Below, in pieces: positions 3,314 to 64,000 of a DNA stretch of 64,000 nt (positions are counted from its first letter, which is position 1; each line of letters starts with the position of its first letter). The DNA is from Mobula hypostoma. Taxonomy: Eukaryota. The notes under the pieces were generated by a model that saw only the letters and a list, made by a program, of their open reading frames with translations, was not told where the DNA came from and searched no databases. The stretch spans positions 24,490,001-24,554,000 of the forward strand of contig NC_086108.1 of assembly GCF_963921235.1 (NCBI RefSeq). The letters are read 5' to 3'. The translations under genes and the position numbers were made by a program.

Positions 3314-4054
3314 ATTTGGTTCACACACTATTGACAGCAAGTCAGCTTAATGCTCAAAGCTCCAGAACAAGCTGGCAAAATAAAAATAATGGAAGAGAAG
3401 GTTTTTGATTTTGAGAACTGAGACTCAAAACAGAAACTGAAGTCATGAAGAGAGAACCAGAGAAAGTAAAGATAATTGGAAAAAAACAATGCAAAAAGGA
3501 ACCAATTGCCAATGGATTTCAGATTAGGTACGATCGGCAGACAGATGGCCACCAGCTTTATCATTTATGAACTATCATTTTAACTGAATAACAGAGGAAA
3601 GCGAAGTCCTGGTGTTTTTGATTATTCATCACAAAATGCCGAAACAAATAGATTTTTGACCCACATAAATAAGAATATAGAACAAAAATATGACCAAGCA
3701 GGTACCAACGAAACAATTTAAAACAGCTCAATTTTTTTCAGTGTAGCATTAGTCCACAAATTTTACTGTCTTCACAGTCTTTTGTAATACCCTAAGATAG
3801 AATGAAATGGAATATAACACCAACGATTATTTTCAAATTGTTGAATCACTATCATCTCTCCAGAATACAAATATGAACTTGTTAAAATCAATAATCACGG
3901 TCCTGTCTAGCAATGCACTTAGACACACTCATGCAAGACATAATAGGCAACCATCCAGCACTAAACAGAAGTCATTTTCACTCTTATTCAGTTCTGGAGG
4001 CACTGTGAACTTTCAGTCAGTATCTGATCCGGACCTTTTTGACTGATGTATGTA

Positions 4055-4243
4055 TAGTGCCTATAAAAAATATTCACCCTCTTTGCAAGTTTTCATGTTT
4101 TACAACATTGAATGACAATGTTGGCTTTTATAACACTGATCAACAGAAAAAGACTCTTTTGTGTCAAAGTGAAAATAAATTTCTACAAATTGGTCTAAAT
4201 CACAATTATTAAACACAAAATAATTGATTTCATCATTACTCAC
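4055..4243. mobile_element. Tc1 terminal inverted repeat (TIR) fragment
   Basis: TA|tagtgcctataaaaaatattcaccc... is the reverse complement of the end of the Tc1 at 60240-60442. Confidence 0.75.
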
Positions 4244-6289
4244 TTCTTGTCTCAGTCCTAAATAGCTGATCCCATGTCCTGAGATCAGAACTCTTACTTC
4301 TGTATTTGCAACAGAGGGAAAAGAGAGTCACATGAGCCACAAATCCCTTGCATATTTCAATGAGGTCATGCTCATCCCCTGATGCTTCTAAACTCCAGCA
4401 ACTTGTGATGACAGAACAGATGAGGGGTCGCTGCCCAAAACATCAATTGTCCATTTCCCTTTTTCGATGTTGTGAGACTCACTGAGTTCTTCCAATGTTT
4501 TGTGTTACTCAAATTCTAATGAGCGGTCTTTGAACTGAAGCATGAGCTCAGTTTTTCTCTCCACATTTTGCCTATCCTTTCCTAAGAATGCTGTCACACC
4601 TGAGACCTCACACGATCGCTATGTGTGTAAGCTGTTGGGCCACATCCAAAACAGTGACCAGTTTATAAGTATCAACAAGCAACAATGAGATCTTGTAAGT
4701 TTGTCTCTAATCACTTAAGTCATTAATAAAAATCAAGTATGACTGAAAAACTGCTCTGATCTATATTGCACCCCAGAAGAAACAGCTGGGTATCTGAAAA
4801 TGGCCCATTTATTCCTACTCTTTTCATTCATCCCTCAGCATACTAATATACTGAACCTGGTAATGTGAGCTCTTATCTTGCAGAGCAGCTTTAGGTGTGG
4901 TACTTTATCAAATTAAATTTGAAATTCCAGATGCATCACTTCTATCAGTTTCCCCCTTTCTCCCTTTCTGCATCTTAAGTGAGGTAGACGCTTTTATGAT
5001 GTAGGAAATATGACACTCTTTGCAGACAGCAAGATCCTGCAAGCTGAAATGTGATAACGACCAGAACATCTGCTTTAGTGTTGTTGATTGAAAAATGAAC
5101 ATTGGCAGGAGAACAAAGACAAAACCTCTGCACTTCCTCAAATGGTTAGATAGAAATTAAAACATTTGTCTTCACTGAGCAACTGAATGTTGAGAGAAAG
5201 CAGACTGCAAAACATGGCCGAGTACTTGGTGTGCACATAGCATTCCTCCTGCCTCCTACATTGGTTTTCTATGCACACACAAGGAAACTGCTGGCCACTA
5301 ACATGCTGTCAATGTGCAGGCAATGAACCAGTGAAGGTACTTTTAATGACTTTGTTAGTTACATGGGTTATGACCAAAGAAAAAAATGGGTGAAGTTGCT
5401 TTAGCACTTTAGTCCAAGGATTATCAGGTAAGTCAAAAATCAAACTTACAAAAATTAGATAAAAAGAAAAATGTCAGTATTTACAAATGAAATTTGCAAT
5501 AAAACAATGATAGTCCATACTTATTCTTGTCCAGTGAGAACTGCTGGCAGCCCCCATTTCTCTCTCTCTCCTACTGAGGGTGAATAGCTTCTTTTCATTC
5601 GGCACTAGGAGATCACATCTTTAACTACACATCCCCATTACTGAAGAAATGGAATATTTTGCCATATTTGGTGGAAGAAGCACCATAAGGCCAACCCAAG
5701 TGTGTCAGGTGGGTTTAGGACCCAGTGGTTGCCACATGACTGCCTAGAAATGACAGATTGAAACAGCAAATTCTCAAAATAATTGCACACTTACAGTTAA
5801 GTACAAATGAAGAATGAAGTTGGTGTCTAACTTTGAATGCTTGTAACTATGTAAAGGGAAAACAGTGGATTAATTATGGGAATATATTTGGGAAGATATT
5901 GAAGTGCGTACACGCACAATGACATCAAAATGACAAGGCAATGTTTGTGTGTGAGTGAAGGAGCATGTGTAAAGTGGGTGTTTATTGAGTGTTCTCTATC
6001 ACAGACTTGCAGCCATGAACATGATATACCTGTATGTGTAGTCCTTAAATACAGAAGTTGACTGGCCTTGCATAGAGTACTCAGATCACTGGGAAAGGGA
6101 GTCCAGTGGGGAACTTCTCAGAGGAGCACCAGTGGCTACTTAATACATAAGGGATTCCTCTTATGTGTTAATATCCTCACTAACTGTTGCCACCATCTTC
6201 ACTCCCTACGATTGGAATTCCTTCCCTTTGATGTTAACTCAGTCTAATTTGATCACAAGCAATAAGCAACACAATTTACAGGTGTCATT

Positions 6290-6545
6290 TTTTTTAAGCC
6301 CATCACACCTACTGGGGCAAAGGCCAATAACAGCAGCTTACCAAGAAAACCTGTCACGGCTAAGCCTACAATTTGTTTCCCCGTGTAGTCCACTTCCAAA
6401 GATCCTTCCTCTCCCAGGGATGAGGTCTTCGGAGATTTTGTTGGCATTTCTATGGCACTAGGTTTTTATGGGATGGGGATAAAAGCCTCATGCCCAACCC
6501 TCCTTCTTTTGCAGTTGGGCTCAGGACTGTCCATGGTGGAATTGT
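6290..6545 (-). mobile_element. RTE-like retroposon fragment
   Basis: Minus strand ggagggttgggcatgaggc...ccccatcccataaaaac resembles an RTE 5' region. No ORF support. Confidence 0.45.
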
Positions 6546-7996
6546 ACCCTCTTTAGCACTGGTGACAGTTTGAGACTCTTGTGCCATCCGTTGTGAAAAT
6601 CCCAATTCTTCTATATTGTTTTAATTGTCAATTTATCAGTTTTAAAATTAAAAGCTTTCAAAGGCATTCAGTATTGCTTGTACTCTGCTGCAAAGATGTA
6701 TTTCTCCAGATTGCAGCTCTTTAACTGGCACCATGCCACTCGGTCTAATACTGTAATCTTGTCTAATATTTTCACTCACAACTCTGCAGGATGGCAGTGA
6801 CATTTACAAAGACTGCTCTTGGCTCCAACGTATAACACAATCTAATCGAAGGCCCAACACAGCTGTCATGAATCTTTCAACAGCTGCTTTATTCTGTCCA
6901 ATGAGGTTGTGTGAAACATTTTTCCCCTGAAATTGCAACATTTGGTTGACAAACAGAAGGTCACTGTATTCTAGAGAATGCCTCTAACTCATATATAAAT
7001 ATCAGCCTCTGGTTTGTTAAGATGATTAGATGTTTGTATTGACTCAAAAAGTGTCAATAGGTAAATAAGAAAGAAACAACTTGGAATGTTTTCTTGGCTG
7101 ATTTCCTACATCTTTTCCTCTAGCAGGTGTTGATGTTTCAGAAAATAACAGACAGATTATTTCCATAATTGTTTATAGACCTGAAGCCATACTAAGGCAA
7201 GAGATTCTGCAGATCCTGGAAATCTAGACCAAAACTGAAGCCACACTGATACCCAAGGTTTTAGCTAAGTATGCTTCTATAGATGATTTCACTTAGACAA
7301 ACTGGAATTAATGAAGCGAAGAGAACACAGCAAAAAAAAAACATTTTTGGAATGAACTTATTTATATGTTTGCCTTGTGGAATGCTGATTTATTCAAATT
7401 TTGATGATTTTCACCATGCTATGTTAATGATTATAGCTGGTACAACAACCAATACAGTTAAAAATAATTGCTCAATATGTCCAGATACAGATTATGAAAG
7501 CACCTTAAATCTTAATTACCTTACAAGGTAACAGAGCACTAAATAATCAGGGTTCCCCCGACTAAGTTAGAAATAAAGAACTTTCAACCATTTGAATAAA
7601 TAGAATCCCCACAATGCTGATTAAGCACTATTCTGCTGCGATGGGAATGGCCCTTACTTTGGTGAAAAATATTGGAACTATACAGTACATATTTTTATGT
7701 TGGCAAGTTTCTTACTCTGATGAGTGAGGCTTAGTGATCTTCAGACTATTGTGCGCCACCAGACACATAACCAAGGACTGGGCAATCAGAAAGGGAAGGG
7801 CTGGGAGGTCAAGTACCTGCACACTTCTATAAGTACCTAGGCTCTTACAAATCCATAGAAGTGTTAAAAGTTATCTAGTTGCTTAAAAAATGAATCCGGG
7901 ATTGTAGATTTTCAGACATTACTTGGATGAATTAATACAGAATGACATCCAAAGCCATTTCACTGACACTTAACGAAGCTGCATTTAAAGAATAGT

Positions 7997-8118
7997 CACA
8001 AACAGAAAATCTCCAGAAGCTGGAAATCCGAGACCCTTTGGCCCAAAACATCGACTGTACTCTTTTCCTAGATGGTGCCTGGCCTGCCCAGTTCCTCCAG
8101 CATTTTCTGTATCTTGTT
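7997..8118. mobile_element. Short inverted-junction Penelope-terminus element
   Basis: agaaaatctccagaagctggaaatcc (minus-orientation end) is joined to ggcccaaaacatcgactgtactcttttcctagatggtgcctgg (plus orientation). Confidence 0.75.
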
Positions 8119-8793
8119 TAAAGTATGGCATTTAAGGAGACTGGCAAGCTGACGAGTTTTGAGAGAGAATTCTGGAAAACAGGACCAAGTGTCTGAAGGC
8201 ATGAAGAGAAATGTAAAGCAAAGGATAAAGGAGATAAATAAGCAATGAAATGGTGGGAAATTATTGAAGTTTGGAAGTATAAGCATTAACCTCTAAAACT
8301 AGCAAGAAATACAAGACGCCTGAACTTCCACACAGCTAACAGCAAGGCCATTACCCAAATGGAGAGGAATGTCTCAGGGACAGGGTAATTATAAGGTAAT
8401 TTACATGTCTTGAAATGGTCAAACTAATTAACTGTGCTTAATTTTAAGGGTTCTCTAGAGACATATATTTTTAAAGAATGTCATAACTTCTCATACCGTT
8501 TAATTTAGCTTTGTAATGTTTCTCAACAGATCTTTGACACTGAACATTAATAATCAGCTTGATAGCCAGGAAAAGTTAAGCTGGAGCTGATGGTTCTCAA
8601 AGCAATCCTGTGGGTGAAGCTTTCCTTTAGTGATCACAGAACCCCAAGGTGTATTCAGGTTGGAGGGGATATTTGAGATGGGGACCTGTTCCAGAAAAAT
8701 GCAAATTTTTGTGGGTAGGTAACAGGGGACTGCCACAGTCAGCCACTCCATAGCAGATTCAGAGCGAGCCACTGTCTGGTTTTGAAGATCTTA

Positions 8794-9070
8794 AAAACAT
8801 CGAAAACGTACAGCAAAATACAGGCCTTTGGCCCACAAAGTTGTGCTGAACATGTCCCTACCTTAGAAATTACTAGGGTTACCCATAGCCCTCTATTTTT
8901 CTAAGCTCCATGTACCTATCCAGAAGTCTCTTAAAAGACCCTATCGTATCCGCTTCCACCACCGTTGCTGGCAGCCCATTCCACGCACTCACCACTCCCT
9001 GTGTTAAAAATCTTACCCTTGACATCTTCTCTGTACCTACTCCCAAGCATCTTAAACCTGTGCCCTCCTG
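8794..9070 (-). mobile_element. CR1 LINE 3' fragment
   Basis: ORF 8879..9142 contains FLTQGVVSAWNGLPATVVEADTIGSFKRLLDRYM (CR1 ORF2 C-terminus), followed by the 3' UTR and tail. Confidence 0.9.
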
Positions 9071-25962: not shown

Positions 25963-28655
25963 ACAAGAGAAAATCTGCAGATGCTGGAAATTTCAAGTAA
26001 TATACAAAATGCTGGAGCAATTTAGCAGACCAGGCAGCATCGATAGAAAAGAGTATAGTCGACGTTTCAAGCAGAGACCTATCAGCAGGACTGGAGAAAA
26101 AAAGATGAGGAGTAGCGTTAAAAGGTAGAGGGAGGGAAAGGAAAAACACAAGGTGATAGGTGAAATTGAGAGGGACAGGGGTGAAGTAAAGAGCTTGGAA
26201 ATTGATTGGTGAAAGTAATACTAGGCTGGGGCAGGGGGGGATCTAATAGGAGAGGACAGAAGCCCATGAAAGAAAGAAAAGGGGGGGAGGAGCACCAGAG
26301 GGAGGCAATGGGCAGGCAAGCAGATATAGGTTGGAGGCTACACAGATAGAATACAAGGTGCTGTTCCTCCATCCTGAGTGTGACGGTAGAAAAGGCCATG
26401 GATAAACATATTGGAATGGGAAAGGGAAGTGGAATTAAAATGGGTGGCCACTGGGAGATCCCACTTTTTCTGACAGATGGAGCATAGGTGCTCAGCAAAG
26501 TGGTCTCCCAATCTACGTTGGTTCTCACTGATATACAGGAGGCCACACCGGGAGCACCGGACACAGTATATGACCCCAACAGGCTCACAGACTAAGCGTT
26601 GATTCACCTGGAAGGACTGTTTGGAGCCTTGAATGGTACTGAGCGAGGAGGTGTAGCAAATGTTCCATTTTCAAGGATAAGTGCTAGGAGGGAGATCAGT
26701 GGGGAGGGTCGGATGGACAAGGGAGCGATCCCTGTGGAAAGCAGAAAGTGGGAAGAAGGGAAATATGTGCTTGGTGGTGGGATCCAGTTGGAGATGGTGG
26801 AAGTTGCGGAGAATCATGTGCTGGACGTGAAGGCTGGTGGGGTGGTAGATGAGGACAAGAGGAACTCTAAACTTGGTAGGGTGGTGGGAGGGTGGGGTGA
26901 GAGCAGACATGCGTAAAATAGGAGAGATGCGGTTGAGTGTGGCATTGATAGTGGAAAAAGTGAAGTCCCTTTCTTTGAAGGAGGACTTCATTCTAAAATG
27001 AAAATCTTCATCCTGAGAGCAGATGCTGCTGAGGTGGAGGAATTGAGAGAAGGGGATGGCACTTTTACAAGTAACAGGGCGGGAAGAGGTATAGTCTGGG
27101 TAGCGGTGAGAGTCGATGGGTTTATAATAGATATCATTAGATAAGCTGTCTCCAGAGGTAGAGACAGAGAGAACAAGAAAGGGGAGGGAGGTGTCAGGAA
27201 TGGATCAGGTAAATTTGAGGGCAGGGTGGAGGTTGGAGGCAAAGTGGATGAAGTTGACGAGTTCTGCATGGGTGCAGGAAGCAGCACCAATGCAGTTGTT
27301 GACATAACATAGGAAAAGTGGGGGAACAGCTGCCAACACAGGCTTGGAACATAGACTGTTCCACGCAGCCAACAAAAAGGCAGGCACAGCTGGTACCCAT
27401 GTGAGTGCCCATGGCTAGACATTTTGTTTGAAGGAAGTGGGAGGAGCCAATGGAGAAATTATTAAGATTGAGGACAAGTTCTGCTCAGCACAGGAGAGTA
27501 GTGGTGGAGGGGAACTGGTTGGTTCTGGTGTCCAGAAAGAAATGAAGAGCTTTGAGGCCTTCCTGGTGGGGGACGGGGGAGTATAGAGACTGGACATCCA
27601 TAGTAAAAATAAGATTATGGGGCCAGGGAACTTGAAATTATTGAAATGATCCAGAGCATTTGAAGTGTCACAGATGTAGGTAGGAAGGGACTGAACTAGG
27701 GGGAATAAAACAGAGTTGAGGTATGCAGATGTGAGTTCAGTGGGGCAGGAACAAGCTGAAACAATGGGCCTACCTGGACAAGTCTGATTGTTGATCTTGG
27801 GTAGGAGGTAGAAACAGGAGGTGTGGGGTGCAGGAACTATGAGGTTGGTGGCAGTGGATGGGAGATTCCCAGAGCTAATACTGTTAGTGATGGTGTGGGA
27901 GACAATGGCCTGGTGCTCCATAGTGGGGTCTTATTTGAGGGACAAATATGAGGAGGTGTTAGAAAGTTGTCACTGGGCCTCAGCAAGGTAGAGGTCAGTA
28001 CAACAGGTTAATACAGCACACTCCTTATCTGCAGGTTTGATGATGAGATTAGGATTAGTGCAGAGGGAGTGGAGAGCACAGCCTTTGCAAGGAGTGAGGC
28101 TGATATTGGAGAAAGGAGTGTTGAAGTTGAGACGGCTGATGTCCCTTCGGCATTTGGCAATGAAATGATCCAGAGCAGGCAGAAGACCAGGGTGGCAGGG
28201 TGGGGTGTCCAGGGAGGAAGGTTGAAGACAGGAGAAGGGGTCATTGGTGGGGGGTGGAGTGTTCTCCAACCTGATGGCAATACCATCGATTTCTCAAACT
28301 TCCGGTAATGGCCCATTTCCTCCCCCCCCCCCCCGCCCATGTCACTCTTTCATCATTCCCTCCCTCACTTTATCTCCTTGCCTGCCCATTGTCTCCCTCT
28401 GGTGCTTCTCCCCCTTTCTTCCATGGCCTTTAATCCTCTCTTATTAGATTCCCCCTTTTCCAGCCCTGTATCTCTTTCACCAATCAACTTCTCTGAACTT
28501 TACTTCATCCCTCTCCCTCTCAGTTTCACCTATCACCTTGTGTTTCTCCCTCTCCTCCACCTACCTTTTAACTCTACTCCTCATCTTCTTTTCTCCAGTC
28601 CTACTGAAGAGTTTCAGTCCAAAGCATCGACTACTCTTTTCCATAGATGCTGTCT
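25963..28655 (-). mobile_element. Penelope-like retroelement (RT + GIY-YIG) with inverted 3' arm
   Basis: IIKPADK, YLLPKI, GRPIVS, MGTHMG, HPALKFT and GVIYCVRCSRCGLLYISE...FAEH. Inverted copy of the 3' end at 28264-28655. Flanked by tcacagtaaat / tcacagtagat. Confidence 0.93.
26056..26093 (-). ncRNA. Minimal hammerhead ribozyme, core variant CUGCUGA
   Basis: cagtc-CTGCTGA-taggtctctgctt-GAAAC-GTC-gacta. A6 of the CUGANGA core is replaced by C. Confidence 0.65.
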
Positions 28656-30448: not shown

Positions 30449-30615
30449 CCGCAAAACATCACAATGTTGTAGAGTGAGGGGTTATCTGGAAGAGGCACAG
30501 TTTGCTGCAGACAGAGTTGCTCACAACCTCCGTTCATTCCATCCGAACAATCAATACCAATGTGCCTGTCATAACAGCCAGAGCCATCCTTCATTGGGCT
30601 GAGCCCCAAAGGGCA
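30449..30615 (-). CDS. astn1: Internal coding exon of astrotactin (ASTN1-like), EGF-like region
   Basis: Minus strand reads ...ttttacccattctttatcccgcag|TGCCCTTTG...ATGTTTTGCGG|gtgagt, with a pyrimidine tract, AG acceptor and GTGAGT donor. The 167 nt give [55 protein letters not shown]+GG (phase 0 to 2). This matches the ASTN1 segment as I recall it ([38 protein letters not shown]...LYNILMFCG). Confidence 0.95.
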
Positions 30616-31904
30616 CTGCGGGGATAAAGAATGGGTAAAATCATTACAGATTGAACAAAAGATAGCATGCTATCTGAGTACAACACTAAAATGATTGCGA
30701 TGAAAGATCTGCCCATTTCAGTCAATGTGACTACCAGCTTGAATAGCACGTTACTCTTTTGCCTATAATAACAAATCACCCAATTATCCTTTACCCTCCT
30801 TGGTACTTTATTTAATAGATTTGCTTATTTATGTTTATTGTTTGTTTTTTCTCAAACATTGTTACATTCATTTATGTATTTTGAATAAATATACTCAGCA
30901 AAGTGCTCCGGGTGGTAATCAAATGTAAAGGACACACAGCAGTAAGTTTAGAATCTAACTGAAGGGTATGATTGCTGAAATATTATTTATCTTGTATGAG
31001 TGTATGCTTCCTACCAATTAACCAGAGGCTCTAGTGACATTGGAGTCACAGTCACAAAGTAAAACAAGGATGTAAACTTATGTGTCTATACTTTCAAACT
31101 TTGTAGCTTCAGATCTCAAGTTTAAGGGACCATAAGACAGAGGAGCACAATTTAGCCATTTTGCCCATTAAGTCTCCATTGTAAGTTTGAATGATTGTCC
31201 ACCATACCTTCCAGGTTCTGGGTTCTTTAATCCACTCCTACATGTTGCTCAAAGTGTTAGCTTTCTCATTAATCATTGACATTCATTATCAAGCGCACTT
31301 TATGCCTCACAGTCCATTGTTAACCTCTGGCTGGAACTTCCAGCCAATGCAATAGTATATATGTCTGTCATGTACACTTCTCTGACAACATCTGACCTTC
31401 TTTGCTTTGGGTCATTTTTTTCACCCTACTGACATGCATATCCTGCCCTGTATCAGCCAGCAGCCACTATTACACCGGCCTTCCCAGTTAAAAAAAAGAA
31501 TCAAGGTGCAAACCAGTTGCAATTGAATTGAATAATTGAAGGTGCTCAGGTAGCTGACTGACCTACTCATGTTCCCAAATGTCATGTCACAGGTGAAAGT
31601 TTAATCGGTAAAAATGCGTTCCTCTCCATCACCTTGCCAGGCTGCCAGTCACACTGAGTGGTGCTCTGCTTCAGGAAACAATCACATAAACTTCAGTCCC
31701 AAAGCAGATTCTCAGTCTGAAACATCAACGATCCCTGTGCCTCCTGAAATACTGCATGACCCAACGAGTTCCTCCAGCAACTTGCAAACATTTCACCTTG
31801 ATTTGAAATGTATTTCAAATTTTATTCTTTAATTCTCCCTGTGGTTTCCACTAGGAAGAAATGTTTCAAAAGTTGGCCAGAATCAACAAAAATATTTCTG
31901 CAAC

Positions 31905-41186: not shown

Positions 41187-42164
41187 ATGCCTCGATTAAA
41201 ACAACTTTCACAGGACCTTAGAAGATGAATTGTAGAGATGCATGAAGCTGGAAAAGGCTACAAAAATATTCCTAAAGATCTGAGTGTTCATCAGTCCACA
41301 GCAAGAGAAACTGTCTACAAATGGAGAACACTTGGTACTGTTGCTACTTTCCCTGGGAGTAGGCATCCTGCAAAGATCACACTAAGAGCACAACGTACTG
41401 TGCTAAAGCCAGTGAAAAAGAGCCCAAGGGTAACAGCAAAAGACCTGCAGAAATCTCCGGAACTTGCTGAAGTATCTGTTCATGTGTCCATTATAAGAAA
41501 TACACTGAACAAGAATGGTGTTCATGGAAGGACACCACGAGGGAAACCACTGCTCTCCAAAACAAAATATTCCTGCACATCTCAAGTTTGCGAAAAACCA
41601 CCTGAATGTTCTACAATGCTTCTGGGGCAACATTCTGTGGACAGAGGAGACAAAGTTGAACTCTTTGGCAGAAATGCACATTACCATGTTTGGAGGGAAA
41701 AGGGCACTGCACACCAACACCAAAACCTCATCCCAATTATGAAGTATGATGGAAGGAGCATCATGGTTTGGGGCTGCTTTGCTGCCTTCGGAACTGGACA
41801 GCTTGCAATCATTGAGGGACCAATGAATTTTACAAGAGAATGTCAGGATGGCAGTCCATCACCTGAAGTTTCATAGAAGTCGGATAATGTAACAAGGCAA
41901 GAGTAAAACAACAACAGAATGGTTTAAAAAAAAGAAGATTTGTGTTTTGGAATGGCCAAGTCAAAGTCCTGACCTTAATCCTATAGAAAAGACCTGAACC
42001 AAGCAGTCATGCAAGGGAGCCCCCCTAACATCCCAGAGTTGAAGCAGTTTTGTAAGGAGAAATGGCCTAAGATTTCTTCAAGCCAATGTGCAGGACTGAT
42101 CAACAGTTACCAGAAACATTTGGTTGAAGATATTGCTGTACTAGGGGGTCACACCAGTTACTGA
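41187..42164 (+). pseudogene. Tc1 transposase pseudogene
   Basis: HEAGKGYKNI...(HTH region), ILWTEETK, GRSIMVWGCF and [13 protein letters not shown], broken by stops and frameshifts. Confidence 0.88.
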
Positions 42165-46272: not shown

Positions 46273-46474
46273 AACACACACATCATGCTGGAGGAACTCA
46301 GCAGGCCAGACAGCATCTATGGAAAAGGGTGAACAGTCAATGTTTTGGACCGATACACTTGCTGAAGACTGTTTACTCCTTTCGATAGATGCTGCTTGGC
46401 CTGCTGAATTCCTCCAGCATTTTGTGTGTGTTGCTTTGGAGTTCTAGCATCTGCAGATTTTCTCATATCTGTGA
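46273..46474. mobile_element. Penelope-terminus fold-back, after a SINE head at ~46200-46272
   Basis: acacacacatcatgctggaggaactcagcaggccagacagcatctat...aacagtc is inverted relative to gactgttt...atagatgctgcttggcctgctgaattcctccagcattttgtgtgtgt. Confidence 0.88.
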
Positions 46475-60810: not shown

Positions 60811-61305
60811 TGGAACAACTTATCACGTAGCTAATTGGCTTGGGATAGGCTCATACCAATAATGCATTCTGCAATCCCTTTATGTTGCTTAGAACTTGAA
60901 ATTCAGATAAGCTCATGAAAGATCAAATGAGGAAATGCGTCACATGTTCCTACAGTGAGGATGCAAAACAGTAACTCCTTTTGAATTTTGAGCGTGCTTC
61001 AGTAAAGGACAAGAAGGAGCAAAGTGCAGGGAGGAATATGAACATGTGACAAAGGGTTTGAAGGAGATGAGAGAGGAGTGAAGGATGAAGAGAATTAAAG
61101 TGAAGGAAATAGGGAGAACTAAACAATGAGAATGGATTGAGGAAAGGCTGGAAGGAGGAAAGGAAGGAGAGGGAGGGTGAAAGTGCTTGAGTTGAACAGA
61201 GTAAAAGAAGATGAAGAAACGGAAGTAGGAGATGGGGAGGGAGAAGCAAAGTGGATGAATAAAGTGAATGAGCTAGTAAGAGATTTGTGGTTAGAAAGCC
61301 AAGGC

Positions 61306-61440
61306 ATGAGAAAATCTGCAGATGCTAGAAATCCAAGCAACACACAAAAAATGCTTAAAGGAACTCAGGCCGAAACATCGACTGTACTCTTTTCCATAGA
61401 TGTTGCCTGGCCTACTGAGTTCCTCCAGCATTTTGTGTCT
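61306..61440. mobile_element. Penelope-terminus fold-back
   Basis: gagaaaatctgcagatgct...acacaaaaaatgcttaaaggaactcag is joined to gccgaaacatcgactgt...ctgagttcctccagcattttgtgt. Confidence 0.85.
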
Positions 61441-63256
61441 ACGGCTGGGAGGCCAAAGCTGTGACTCCTGTAATGTGTGAGCAATTCCTCTTTGGGAGAT
61501 ATTGAGTATTTTAAAGCTCAGAAATGGTAAAAGGGTTTTGCATGCTGGAATAAGATTTAAGTTTTAAATATAATAAATGCTAGCTGTACTCACATTGAAA
61601 AACACTCTGGATAAAATTACCAATTACAGCCCAACATACGTGCTTTGTTTCAGTTACTTTGAGAAAATCTTCATTTCTCAGCCAAATAGCTGTAATTTAA
61701 AAGATAAATATTGCAGTTAAGCGTTCTGTTAAAACAGACACTGGAATTTGTATAGATCCTTTTTTTATATTGCCATTTTGTTTGCTGCATGACTTATCAG
61801 GTTTAACAGTTTGAAACTAAATTATTATTTAGATAAAGCATAAAACCAAATGAGTTTTCAGAGCAACATAATGGTTGGCTAAAATGTGCTGAAAAATATT
61901 TTCTCCAATTCTTTTGTATGGAATATTCTGAAACCTGCATAAATCACATCTCAATGAGCAAATTTAAGGATTCAAAGGAGAACATAGGCACTGAGAAGGA
62001 AAGGGGGCTCGGTAGAGAATACAGAAGTGGCCAATGAGAACCATAAACATATGGAGAGAATCACTGCAGAAACATAGATGAGAGAATGTTTGCAAAAGTT
62101 AATGTTGGTTACACAGACACTGAGGCAGAGGAAATTATATTGTAGAATGATGGAAATTTGCTGAGTAATTAAATATATTGTGTCTGAGCCAAGTAAATGT
62201 TGATTAATGAAACGGAAGAGCTAATATAAAATTATGGAGAGGAAACCATGAGGTTTGACAAATGGTCTTGAACAAAAAACATTCTTTTTCCACAGATACT
62301 ATACATGAATCAAAGTTCACACGCATGTTCAGCCGTCAGTTAGGGAAGTATAAAGTATATAGTATATTTCCCTTAATTGCAAGATGATCAGATTAAGAGA
62401 ATTTGTGTTTCAATTGTATGGAGCTGTGGTGAAACTGCACTTGAAATATTATTGAGACTGTTTACCCTTTTCCATAGATTCTACCTGGCCTGAGGTTCTC
62501 CAGCATTTTATAAAGGATGCTTCTCATTTTTCTTCTTCACTTCTCCTCACCTTTCCTTTAGCTTTCTTTCCTTCATTTATATTTCCTTTCTTATCTTGCC
62601 TTTTGAAAGCCCTTTCTTGTCCTTTCCTCTTTCCATCTGTTGCATGCTGTTCCCACCACTAATCCTCCACCTTCTGCACCCGAGAGCTGTCTCTGGTCTC
62701 AAGAAAGTCGTCTGCCGTATCTTCACAGCAGGTTAATACTTGTGGCAATTCAATCAGCCATTTCTGCCATGTATTCCTTTCCCTGTTTATCTAACTAGGT
62801 GAAAACAAAAGGTCCTCATATATGATTCAAAGAGGAGCAGATGATATAAGCCTGCAGTATTAACATATATTTATCCCATAATCAGATTTATGTTAACTTA
62901 TCATGTTTGTCATGTTTATAATGCACTGTACTGCCAGTCCCAAAGCTAATTTACACTCTGTATGTACACCTACGATAATAAACTTAAATAGCAAGCTTCA
63001 TTAGTGTTATAGAACTACATTTGTACTAAATTTGTTCCAAAAATACTTCACTGGTTGCAAAACACTTTGAGATAAAAATAATGAAATCAAGTGTATGAAT
63101 TCAATCTATTTGTTCTTTTATCCTAAAATTTAACTTCCACACCTGGAGTTAGAGATATTAATGTGTACTTCTTAATAATATGCCTTACAATCAAGTCTAA
63201 ATTAGTCTCCTGGCAGAGTCTCCATTTTGTGTGTAAACTGAACTGTAACAGCTTGT

Positions 63257-64000
63257 ACACAACAGGAATTCTGCAGATGCTGGAAATTCAAGCAACACAC
63301 ATCGAAGTTGCTGGTGACGCAGCAGACCAGGCAGCATCTCTAGGAAGAGGTGCAGTCGACGTTTCAGGCCGAGACCCTTCGTCAGGACTAACTGAAGGAA
63401 GAGTGAGTAAGAGATTTGAAAGTTGGAGGGGGAGGGGGAGATCCAATATGATAGGAGAAAACAGGAGGGGGAGGGATGGAGCCAAGAGCTGGACAGGTGA
63501 TTGGCAAAAGGGATACGAGAGGATCATGAGACAGGAGGTCCGGGAAGAAAGACGGGGGGGGGGGGGGAACCCAGAGGATGGCAAGGGGTATATTCAGAGG
63601 GACAGAGGGAGAAAAAGGAGAGTGAGGGAAAGAATGTGTGTATAAAAATAAGTAACAGATGGGGTACGAGGGGGAGGTGGGGCATTAGCGGAAGTTAGAG
63701 AAGTCGATGTTCATGCCACCAGGTTGGAGGCTACCCAGACGGAATATAAGGTGTCGTTCCTCCAACCTGAGTGTGGCTTCATCTTTACAGTAGAGGAGGC
63801 CGTGGATAGACATGTCAGGATGGGAATGAGATGTGGAATTAAAATCTGTGGCCACTGGGAGACCGCTTTGCTGAACATCTACGCTCTGTCCGCCAGAGAA
63901 AGTAGGATCTCCCAGTGGCCACACATTTTAATTCCACATCCCATTCCCATTCTGACATGTCTATCCACGGCCTCCTCTACTGTAAAGATGAAGCCACACT
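63257..64000 (-). mobile_element. Penelope-like 3' end with inverted arm, running off the window
   Basis: ORF 63685..63924 contains PVATDFNS...EATLRLEERHLIFRLGSLQPGGMNIDFSNFR (GIY-YIG C-terminus). From 63861 the same sequence runs in plus orientation. Confidence 0.92.
63353..63390 (-). ncRNA. Minimal type I hammerhead ribozyme, intact core
   Basis: UAGUC-CUGACGA-AGG gucucgg CCU-GAAAC-GUC|GACUG: stem I UAGUC/GACUG, stem II AGG/CCU, palindromic ACGU stem III. Predicted cut between 63358 and 63357. Confidence 0.88.

Follow-up and report, generated by a model that had tools for sequence, protein, structure and literature searches.

Does the pre-mRNA of astrotactin-1 (astn1), a neural gene, carry a ribozyme able to cut it in the ray Mobula hypostoma? 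The question is raised by a hammerhead-like motif near one end of the 64,000-nucleotide stretch of contig C50 analyzed here (the window; coordinates without a prefix are window positions). A preliminary description took the motif for one of the minimal type I hammerheads that a Penelope-like element (PLE) carries. It listed all core nucleotides and stems I and II on the minus strand, with stem III reduced to the palindrome ACGU, and suggested that the motif, should it lie in the astn1 intron upstream of the exon at 30449-30615, could be a self-cleavage site.

A minimal hammerhead on the astn1 sense strand

Checked base by base, the core nucleotides, both stems and the palindrome are all present as described, and we confirm that the hammerhead motif is real. 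It consists of the following parts:

63354..63389, minus: minimal type I hammerhead (stem I, CUGACGA, extra A, stem II, GAAA, ACGU palindrome, GUC)
63389-63386 with 63357-63354, minus: stem I, AGUC with GACU, 4 bp; a U-G extension (63390/63353) is possible
63385-63379, minus: core CUGACGA, followed by the unpaired extra A at 63378
63377-63374 with 63369-63366, minus: stem II, GGGU with GCCU, 4 bp, loop CUCG
63365-63362, 63361 and 63360-63358, minus: GAAA, C and GUC, the 3' part of the core
63358/63357, minus: predicted cut, positioned from the sequence

Read on the minus strand, stem III has shrunk to A15.1-C15.2-G16.2-U16.1. The traits of minimal hammerheads are present: a CUGANGA/GAAA/NUH core in type I order, a helix I of 4-5 bp closing the motif, a 4-bp helix II, no helix III, a palindromic 15.2-16.2, an extra base between 9 and 10.1, and a location inside the pLTR of a PLE. 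The PLE minimal hammerheads of Cervera and de la Pena 2014 (PMC4209133) are likewise of type I, lack helix III, are palindromic at 15.2-16.2, carry the extra base 9/10.1, have a helix I of 4-5 bp, lie in pLTRs, and occur mostly as solo motifs or opposite-strand pairs. Helix II is shorter in the ray, with 4 bp against 7-8 bp in the Schistosoma families (PMC4209133). Its closing pair also differs: the published class has a highly conserved G-C there (PMC4209133), which is typical rather than defining and does not figure in the published search descriptor, whereas the dominant ray subfamily has G10.1-U11.1. We assign G10.1-U11.1 to the present copy because the register that leaves the extra A unpaired is favored. 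Of 92 distinct relatives (from 102 matches in 1.86 Mb of astn1), 91 keep the first pair of stem II in this register (G-U 51, G-C 36, A-U 4), compared with 52 of 92 in the alternative register.

The 36-mer occurs exactly 32,886 times in the 3.48-Gb genome (16,386 and 16,500 copies by strand) and its backwards control 0 times, so the motif is not a chance sequence. The variant with C at 11.1 has 4,891 exact copies, fewer than the dominant subfamily, in which U at this position (63366, minus) forms the G-U wobble. Both bases were seen in four of 16 sequencing runs, all of them sets of contigs; these four were aligned to 62600-63760, which cover the repeat and not its unique flank. Together the two variants amount to at least 37,777 exact copies, compared with the ~4,000-9,000 motifs reported in coelacanth and Xenopus (PMC4209133). 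Sequence heterogeneity within the ray family is low, as in the D. virilis case (PMC4209133).

A covariance-model search, as proposed in the preliminary description, was run with Rfam; it returned nothing at gathering score in the whole window. Within 61000-64000, allowing E values up to 10, no hammerhead was matched, and the hits were just weak miRNA-precursor ones at the palindrome center (63841-63929). The loose pattern CUGANGA..GAAA has 10 matches in the window, and stems were scored for the one at 63354-63389. A consensus match arising by chance inside a repeat, never a ribozyme, would account for the empty Rfam search, for a 56-nt piece around the motif folding no more stably than its shuffles (z=0.15), and for the scarcity of true two-sided covariation among the 92 relatives. 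Against this reading, every core base, the two stems, the additional base that follows position 9 and the palindrome at 15.2-16.2 are as published (PMC4209133) and sit at the expected place in the pLTR. Moreover, stem II pairs are preserved in 83-91 of the 92 relatives, the subfamily substitutions (G-C/G-U, U-G/U-A) leave the stem paired, and among the core columns the free position 7 varies most (C 44, U 33, A 13, G 2). We therefore regard a chance match as extremely improbable.

Using sawfish astrotactin-1 as the query of a genome search, we located the astn1 exons on the minus strand of C50, running from 26.41 to 23.57 Mb. The coding exons spread over ~2.84 Mb, and a paralogue on C67 spans ~1.8 Mb. 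The exon that follows the host intron is:

30449..30615, minus: astn1 coding exon, ~residues 580-635 of P0004

Read from 30615 to 30449, this exon specifies a stretch of 55 residues that matches sawfish astrotactin-1 at 100% identity. The host intron extends for 136.8 kb from a GT donor at C50:24657431, after the exon for residues 527-579, to an acceptor at window position 30616. The exons on either side are consecutive and in frame, and tblastn of the stretch between them found no astn1 coding exon inside the intron. The motif (C50:24553354-389) is in astn1 sense orientation, with the nearest exon 33 kb away, and the gene model thus agrees with the intronic placement originally suggested.

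On the minus strand, 63420-63388 consists of a pyrimidine tract followed by CAG and TAG right before stem I, resembling a 3' splice site, and overlaps an initiator-like TCAGTT that lies 4 nt upstream of stem I. The intron of D. virilis Penelope is reported to end at the corresponding place before stem I.

A head-to-head pair of element ends

The hammerhead is part of a 1,222-bp insertion (63258-64479) that crosses the window edge and joins two element ends head to head:

63247..63257, plus: 11-bp target-site duplication AACAGCTTGTA; second copy at 64480-64490, outside the window
63258..63862, minus: left arm, in astn1 sense orientation; 3' end of a PLE, 5'-truncated
63258..63291, minus: 34-nt tail, confined to the left arm
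63854..63862: 9-nt junction microhomology joining the 5' ends of both arms
63854..64000, plus: right (inverted) arm, running on past the window to 64479 (L006:4479)
64381-64416, plus: second hammerhead, in the right arm, outside the window

The left arm comprises, in order, an endonuclease C-terminus, a stop codon (63687-63685), a pyrimidine-rich 3' UTR, the hammerhead, a downstream segment and the tail. Its hammerhead core is perfect, while the partner in the right arm has one change; dual hammerhead motifs on opposite strands are already known (PMC4209133). The arms differ at 25 of 568 aligned bases, with 11/604 and 14/626 private changes (~2% each). These show no one-strand A>G excess, and no editing scar was seen in the arms. 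At ~93% identity to dozens of sibling copies, the insertion is a young repeat copy.

Inverted pLTRs, a one-sided tail and a target-site duplication (TSD) form the typical layout of such insertions (PMC8557442, PMC3846280), and an optional tail of 30-40 bp has been described (PMC8557442, PMC11167929). The astn1 copy resembles the insertion units of endonuclease-bearing (EN+) PLEs in its head-to-head arms, one-arm 34-nt tail, 11-bp TSD and junction overlap (PMC8557442, PMC3846280, PMC11167929). It differs from them in holding no direct-repeat pLTR and no ORF, just two 600-nt 3' ends.

These features suggest a single insertion event in which both cut DNA strands would have served as primers for reverse transcription; its two start sites would define the tail. 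Two adjacent reverse-transcription starts have been reported (PMC11167929), and the 34-nt tail fits them. The template RNA was probably not cut by the ribozyme, since both arms keep 66-100 nt past the cut site, still joined to the preceding sequence. The two cDNAs may then have been joined through the 9-nt microhomology, after which both arms would have gained their private changes as unselected DNA would.

Such pairs are common in the family. Of the 37 young copies in 1.86 Mb of astn1, 18 are in inverted pairs, and of 30 exact copies sampled on contig C1, 11 have an antisense match no more than 1.5 kb away. Seven of 10 young inverted pairs checked have a shared flank match of 11-14 nt, and in most of the 10 one arm has a long 3' end and the other a short one. 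The 3' ends of young copies fall into two groups, at ~+97 and ~+131 counted from where the hammerhead begins.

Each arm holds the end of an ORF, the final residues of which match the 668-residue frame of a sister copy in astn1:

L171:6658-8661: sister-copy ORF, with a reverse transcriptase (RT), a CxxxCxxC linker and GIY-YIG as its C-terminal domain; same C-terminus as the arms

Pfam hits to the sister ORF fall below the cut-offs, for both RVT_1 (E=3.4e-6, score 27.4, cut-off 29.6) and GIY-YIG (E=5.8e-4, score 20.5, cut-off 22.6); a two-cysteine motif is visible between GIY and YIG. The element protein has 843 homologues, many with PF00078, and its closest named relatives are from Mobula hypostoma (87-90%). 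The RT, zinc-finger-like linker and C-terminal GIY-YIG are as in EN+ PLEs of the Neptune or Nematis type, and the insertion-unit features (inverted pLTRs, a tail of the 30-40-bp class, TSD) were found as well. Judged from sequence, the parent is an EN+ PLE. The linker by itself points to the Neptune or Nematis type, as the CxxxCxxC-type linker of Neptune also occurs in Nematis (PMC8557442). Anatomy and pLTR position thus bear out the original attribution of the hammerhead to a PLE.

Elsewhere in the window, 25963-28655 holds older, rearranged remnants of a related PLE, with RT-like frames at 26674-27930 and a decayed hammerhead near 26092. A Pfam scan gave no match in three older element fragments at 26121-27930, nor in the arm's 66-aa frame. 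Short opposite-strand matches to the element 3' end at 630-797 and 46276-46463 are probably small old fold-back stubs. A frame at 41229-41876 resembles what we take to be a fragment of a Tc1-type transposase.

Prospects for cleavage of astn1 pre-mRNA

We folded a 1,541-nt transcript spanning the insertion. In this equilibrium prediction, which models RNA outside the influence of proteins, helicases and editing, the right arm takes up 557 of 628 left-arm bases in pairs; for 35 of the 36 bases of the ribozyme the pairing probability is >=0.98, and stems I and II form with probability 0.0. In astn1 pre-mRNA the plus-strand arm would be transcribed first, as antisense, and the hairpin is predicted to zip from its center outward, capturing the ribozyme bases as they emerge. 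The order of transcription would thus favor pairing of the ribozyme with its mirror arm. Even the bare 36-mer has a predicted minimum of -10.0 kcal/mol, compared with -6.0 kcal/mol for the hammerhead fold, and its preferred structure pairs core GACG with CGUC in the region of the cleavage triplet.

Dimer cleavage has reportedly been described by Lunse et al. The ACGU palindrome could make a 4-bp intermolecular helix (-3.1 kcal/mol predicted). The nearest sense copy, 10.8 kb upstream, is not intact and is itself paired; the next, 52 kb upstream in the same intron, is exact and solo, and is the nearest intact unpaired dimer partner. In published work, no cleavage was seen for a Schistosoma monomer and little for dimers (PMC4209133), and an anole element hammerhead cut only with the element protein, was not required for insertion, and had no RNA-seq ends at its cut site in the data reported (PMC11167929). 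Given the predicted mirror-arm pairing, the G-U closure of stem II and the inactivity of unaided monomers of this class, cleavage of astn1 pre-mRNA at 63358/63357 is unlikely. A cut inside a long intron need not block splicing of the flanking exons.

We compared strands within this one gene, using 1.86 of its 2.84 Mb and ungapped copies with at most 7 substitutions. The 102 related copies divide into 56 sense and 46 antisense (p=0.37; control 0). Those with an intact core number 28 and 26, those fully intact by our own criteria 11 and 13, intact solo copies 7 and 8, and young copies 19 and 18. No strand bias is therefore seen among related or intact copies, in a test of one gene with modest power. 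Exact 36-mers number 2 sense and 8 antisense (p=0.11). They total 10, where genome density predicts 17.6 (p=0.037), which weakly hints that perfect copies in sense orientation may be slightly disfavored in astn1. By the same density, a gene spanning as much as astn1 should hold ~13 exact sense copies, and the 136.8-kb host intron ~1.3 exact copies. The suggestion of a meaningful self-cleavage site in a neural pre-mRNA is not supported, given the expected frequency of such placements, the equal sense and antisense numbers, the predicted capture by an inverted arm just outside the window, and the distance to the nearest usable partner.

Two functional alternatives were considered. In the first, the copy occasionally cuts astn1 pre-mRNA at a low, unselected level, as a dimer with another sense copy or transcript or aided by protein. 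The intact core, the 11 intact sense copies within astn1, including the exact solo copy in the same intron, the intermolecular ACGU helix, the help given by the element protein in vitro (PMC11167929) and the 2:8 ratio of exact copies would all fit. The predicted full capture by the inverted arm, the competing fold of the 36-mer, the G-U at 10.1-11.1 and the even strand distribution of intact copies argue against it, and the candidates for such cutting would be solo copies rather than this one. We judge it improbable.

In the second, the ribozyme or the surrounding hairpin has been taken over by the host as a regulator of astn1 splicing or output. Cases of domesticated intronic hammerheads are known (PMC6155905): those of RECK, C10orf118/CTCL and DTNB are, like the ray motif, of type I and in an intron of a protein-coding gene, and are described as conserved across amniotes, and the two human ones as active (PMC6155905, PMC10761166). 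The ray copy is also intronic, on the sense strand of a neural gene and intact in its core, and the 570-bp hairpin could serve as an editing substrate. However, the RECK type is a complete three-helix ribozyme outside young repeats, whereas the ray copy lacks helix III, is one of tens of thousands of young repeats, ~93% identical to dozens of siblings, and is masked by its inverted arm. Its placement is expected by chance, the nearest exon is 33 kb away, and no feature sets it apart from other copies. Host use seems still less probable than occasional cutting.

With ~33,000 identical copies in the genome and an adjoining mirror-image copy that would zip it shut, the copy is most likely ordinary inert debris. 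Our preferred reading, which we hold to be very probable as a whole, is that a real and correctly placed hammerhead of an already known kind, the PLE minimal hammerhead, belongs to an element end repeat, forms half of the 1,222-bp head-to-head insertion in an astn1 intron, and should be inactive there, its bases being predicted to pair with the mirror-image arm.

Where young copies end

Across the family, the 5' ends of copies are unevenly distributed. In C50:23.89-25.75 Mb (L006-L105, L131-L210), 122 alignments reach the element 3' end. We analyzed the 58 with >=88% identity to the reference copy and set aside the remaining 64, as older subfamilies differ in the sequence upstream of the ribozyme. 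Relative to stem I, 26 of the 58 young copies have their 5' end at -9..+25, none at +26..+35, 7 at +36..+69, 10 at -10..-499, and 15 extend beyond that. The stop rate at the front half of the ribozyme is 18-fold higher than upstream (p=2e-16, the arms of one insertion not being independent). On C1 (L001-L005, L211-L235), 15 of 30 exact copies have their 5' end no more than 44 nt from stem I, with no ends from -45 to -263, while 4 of 25 C-variant copies end within 26 nt of stem I. The edge is blurred, as some 5' ends lie at -21 to -44. Many copies consist of the ribozyme and tail only; the copy at 63354-63389 is not among these short ones. Clear target duplications flank 3 of 9 short solo copies checked in astn1.

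The pile-up is not a fossil of cleavage: with the cut at +32, not one of the 58 young copies starts within +26..+35. Spliced copies were rejected as the source of the short copies, whose upstream sequence is unrelated or target-duplicated, with no common 5' exon by eye. The pile-up at the front edge of the ribozyme may mark the start of the element RNA. Its pattern can be read as run-off at the RNA 5' end after internal priming in the upstream pLTR; an internal promoter is known in the pLTR of D. virilis Penelope (PMC2377424). A barrier or fold-back at the ribozyme hairpin is a rival explanation of the same ends.

We tentatively propose, as a reading we consider possible but somewhat short of an even chance, that solo hammerheads are a fossil map of the element RNA. 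This RNA would start a few bases before the hammerhead, where the initiator-like TCAGTT lies, and reverse transcription, often beginning at the tail site of the upstream pLTR, would run off its end to leave TSD-flanked copies of 100-135 bp. Since no pile-up occurs at the cut site, the copied RNA would have been uncut, making the ribozyme dispensable for amplification in this vertebrate. In the subfamily that amplified most, the G-U at 10.1-11.1 would also weaken the ribozyme.

Our search of openly accessible literature found no paper on the ray family or on a 5'-end pile-up; the supplements of PMC4209133 and of a 2026 preprint may list cartilaginous-fish motifs. One chondrichthyan has been sampled for retrozymes and PLEs (bioRxiv 10.64898/2026.07.22.740005), and further passages on the subject are found in PMC6765202, PMC2837043 and 10.1101/2020.10.19.344200.

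For astn1, the site is probably of no consequence, a piece of chance debris. More generally, a regulatory role for an intronic hammerhead of a shark or ray should be proposed only once its flanks and copy number have been checked. The front-edge pile-up without cut-site ends bears on what PLE hammerheads do and why most are solo. With >37,000 near-identical copies, roughly half of them sense wherever they lie in genes, the ray genome offers a genome-wide test of whether such ribozymes cut host transcripts, namely the strand bias of intact solo copies compared with paired or dead ones.
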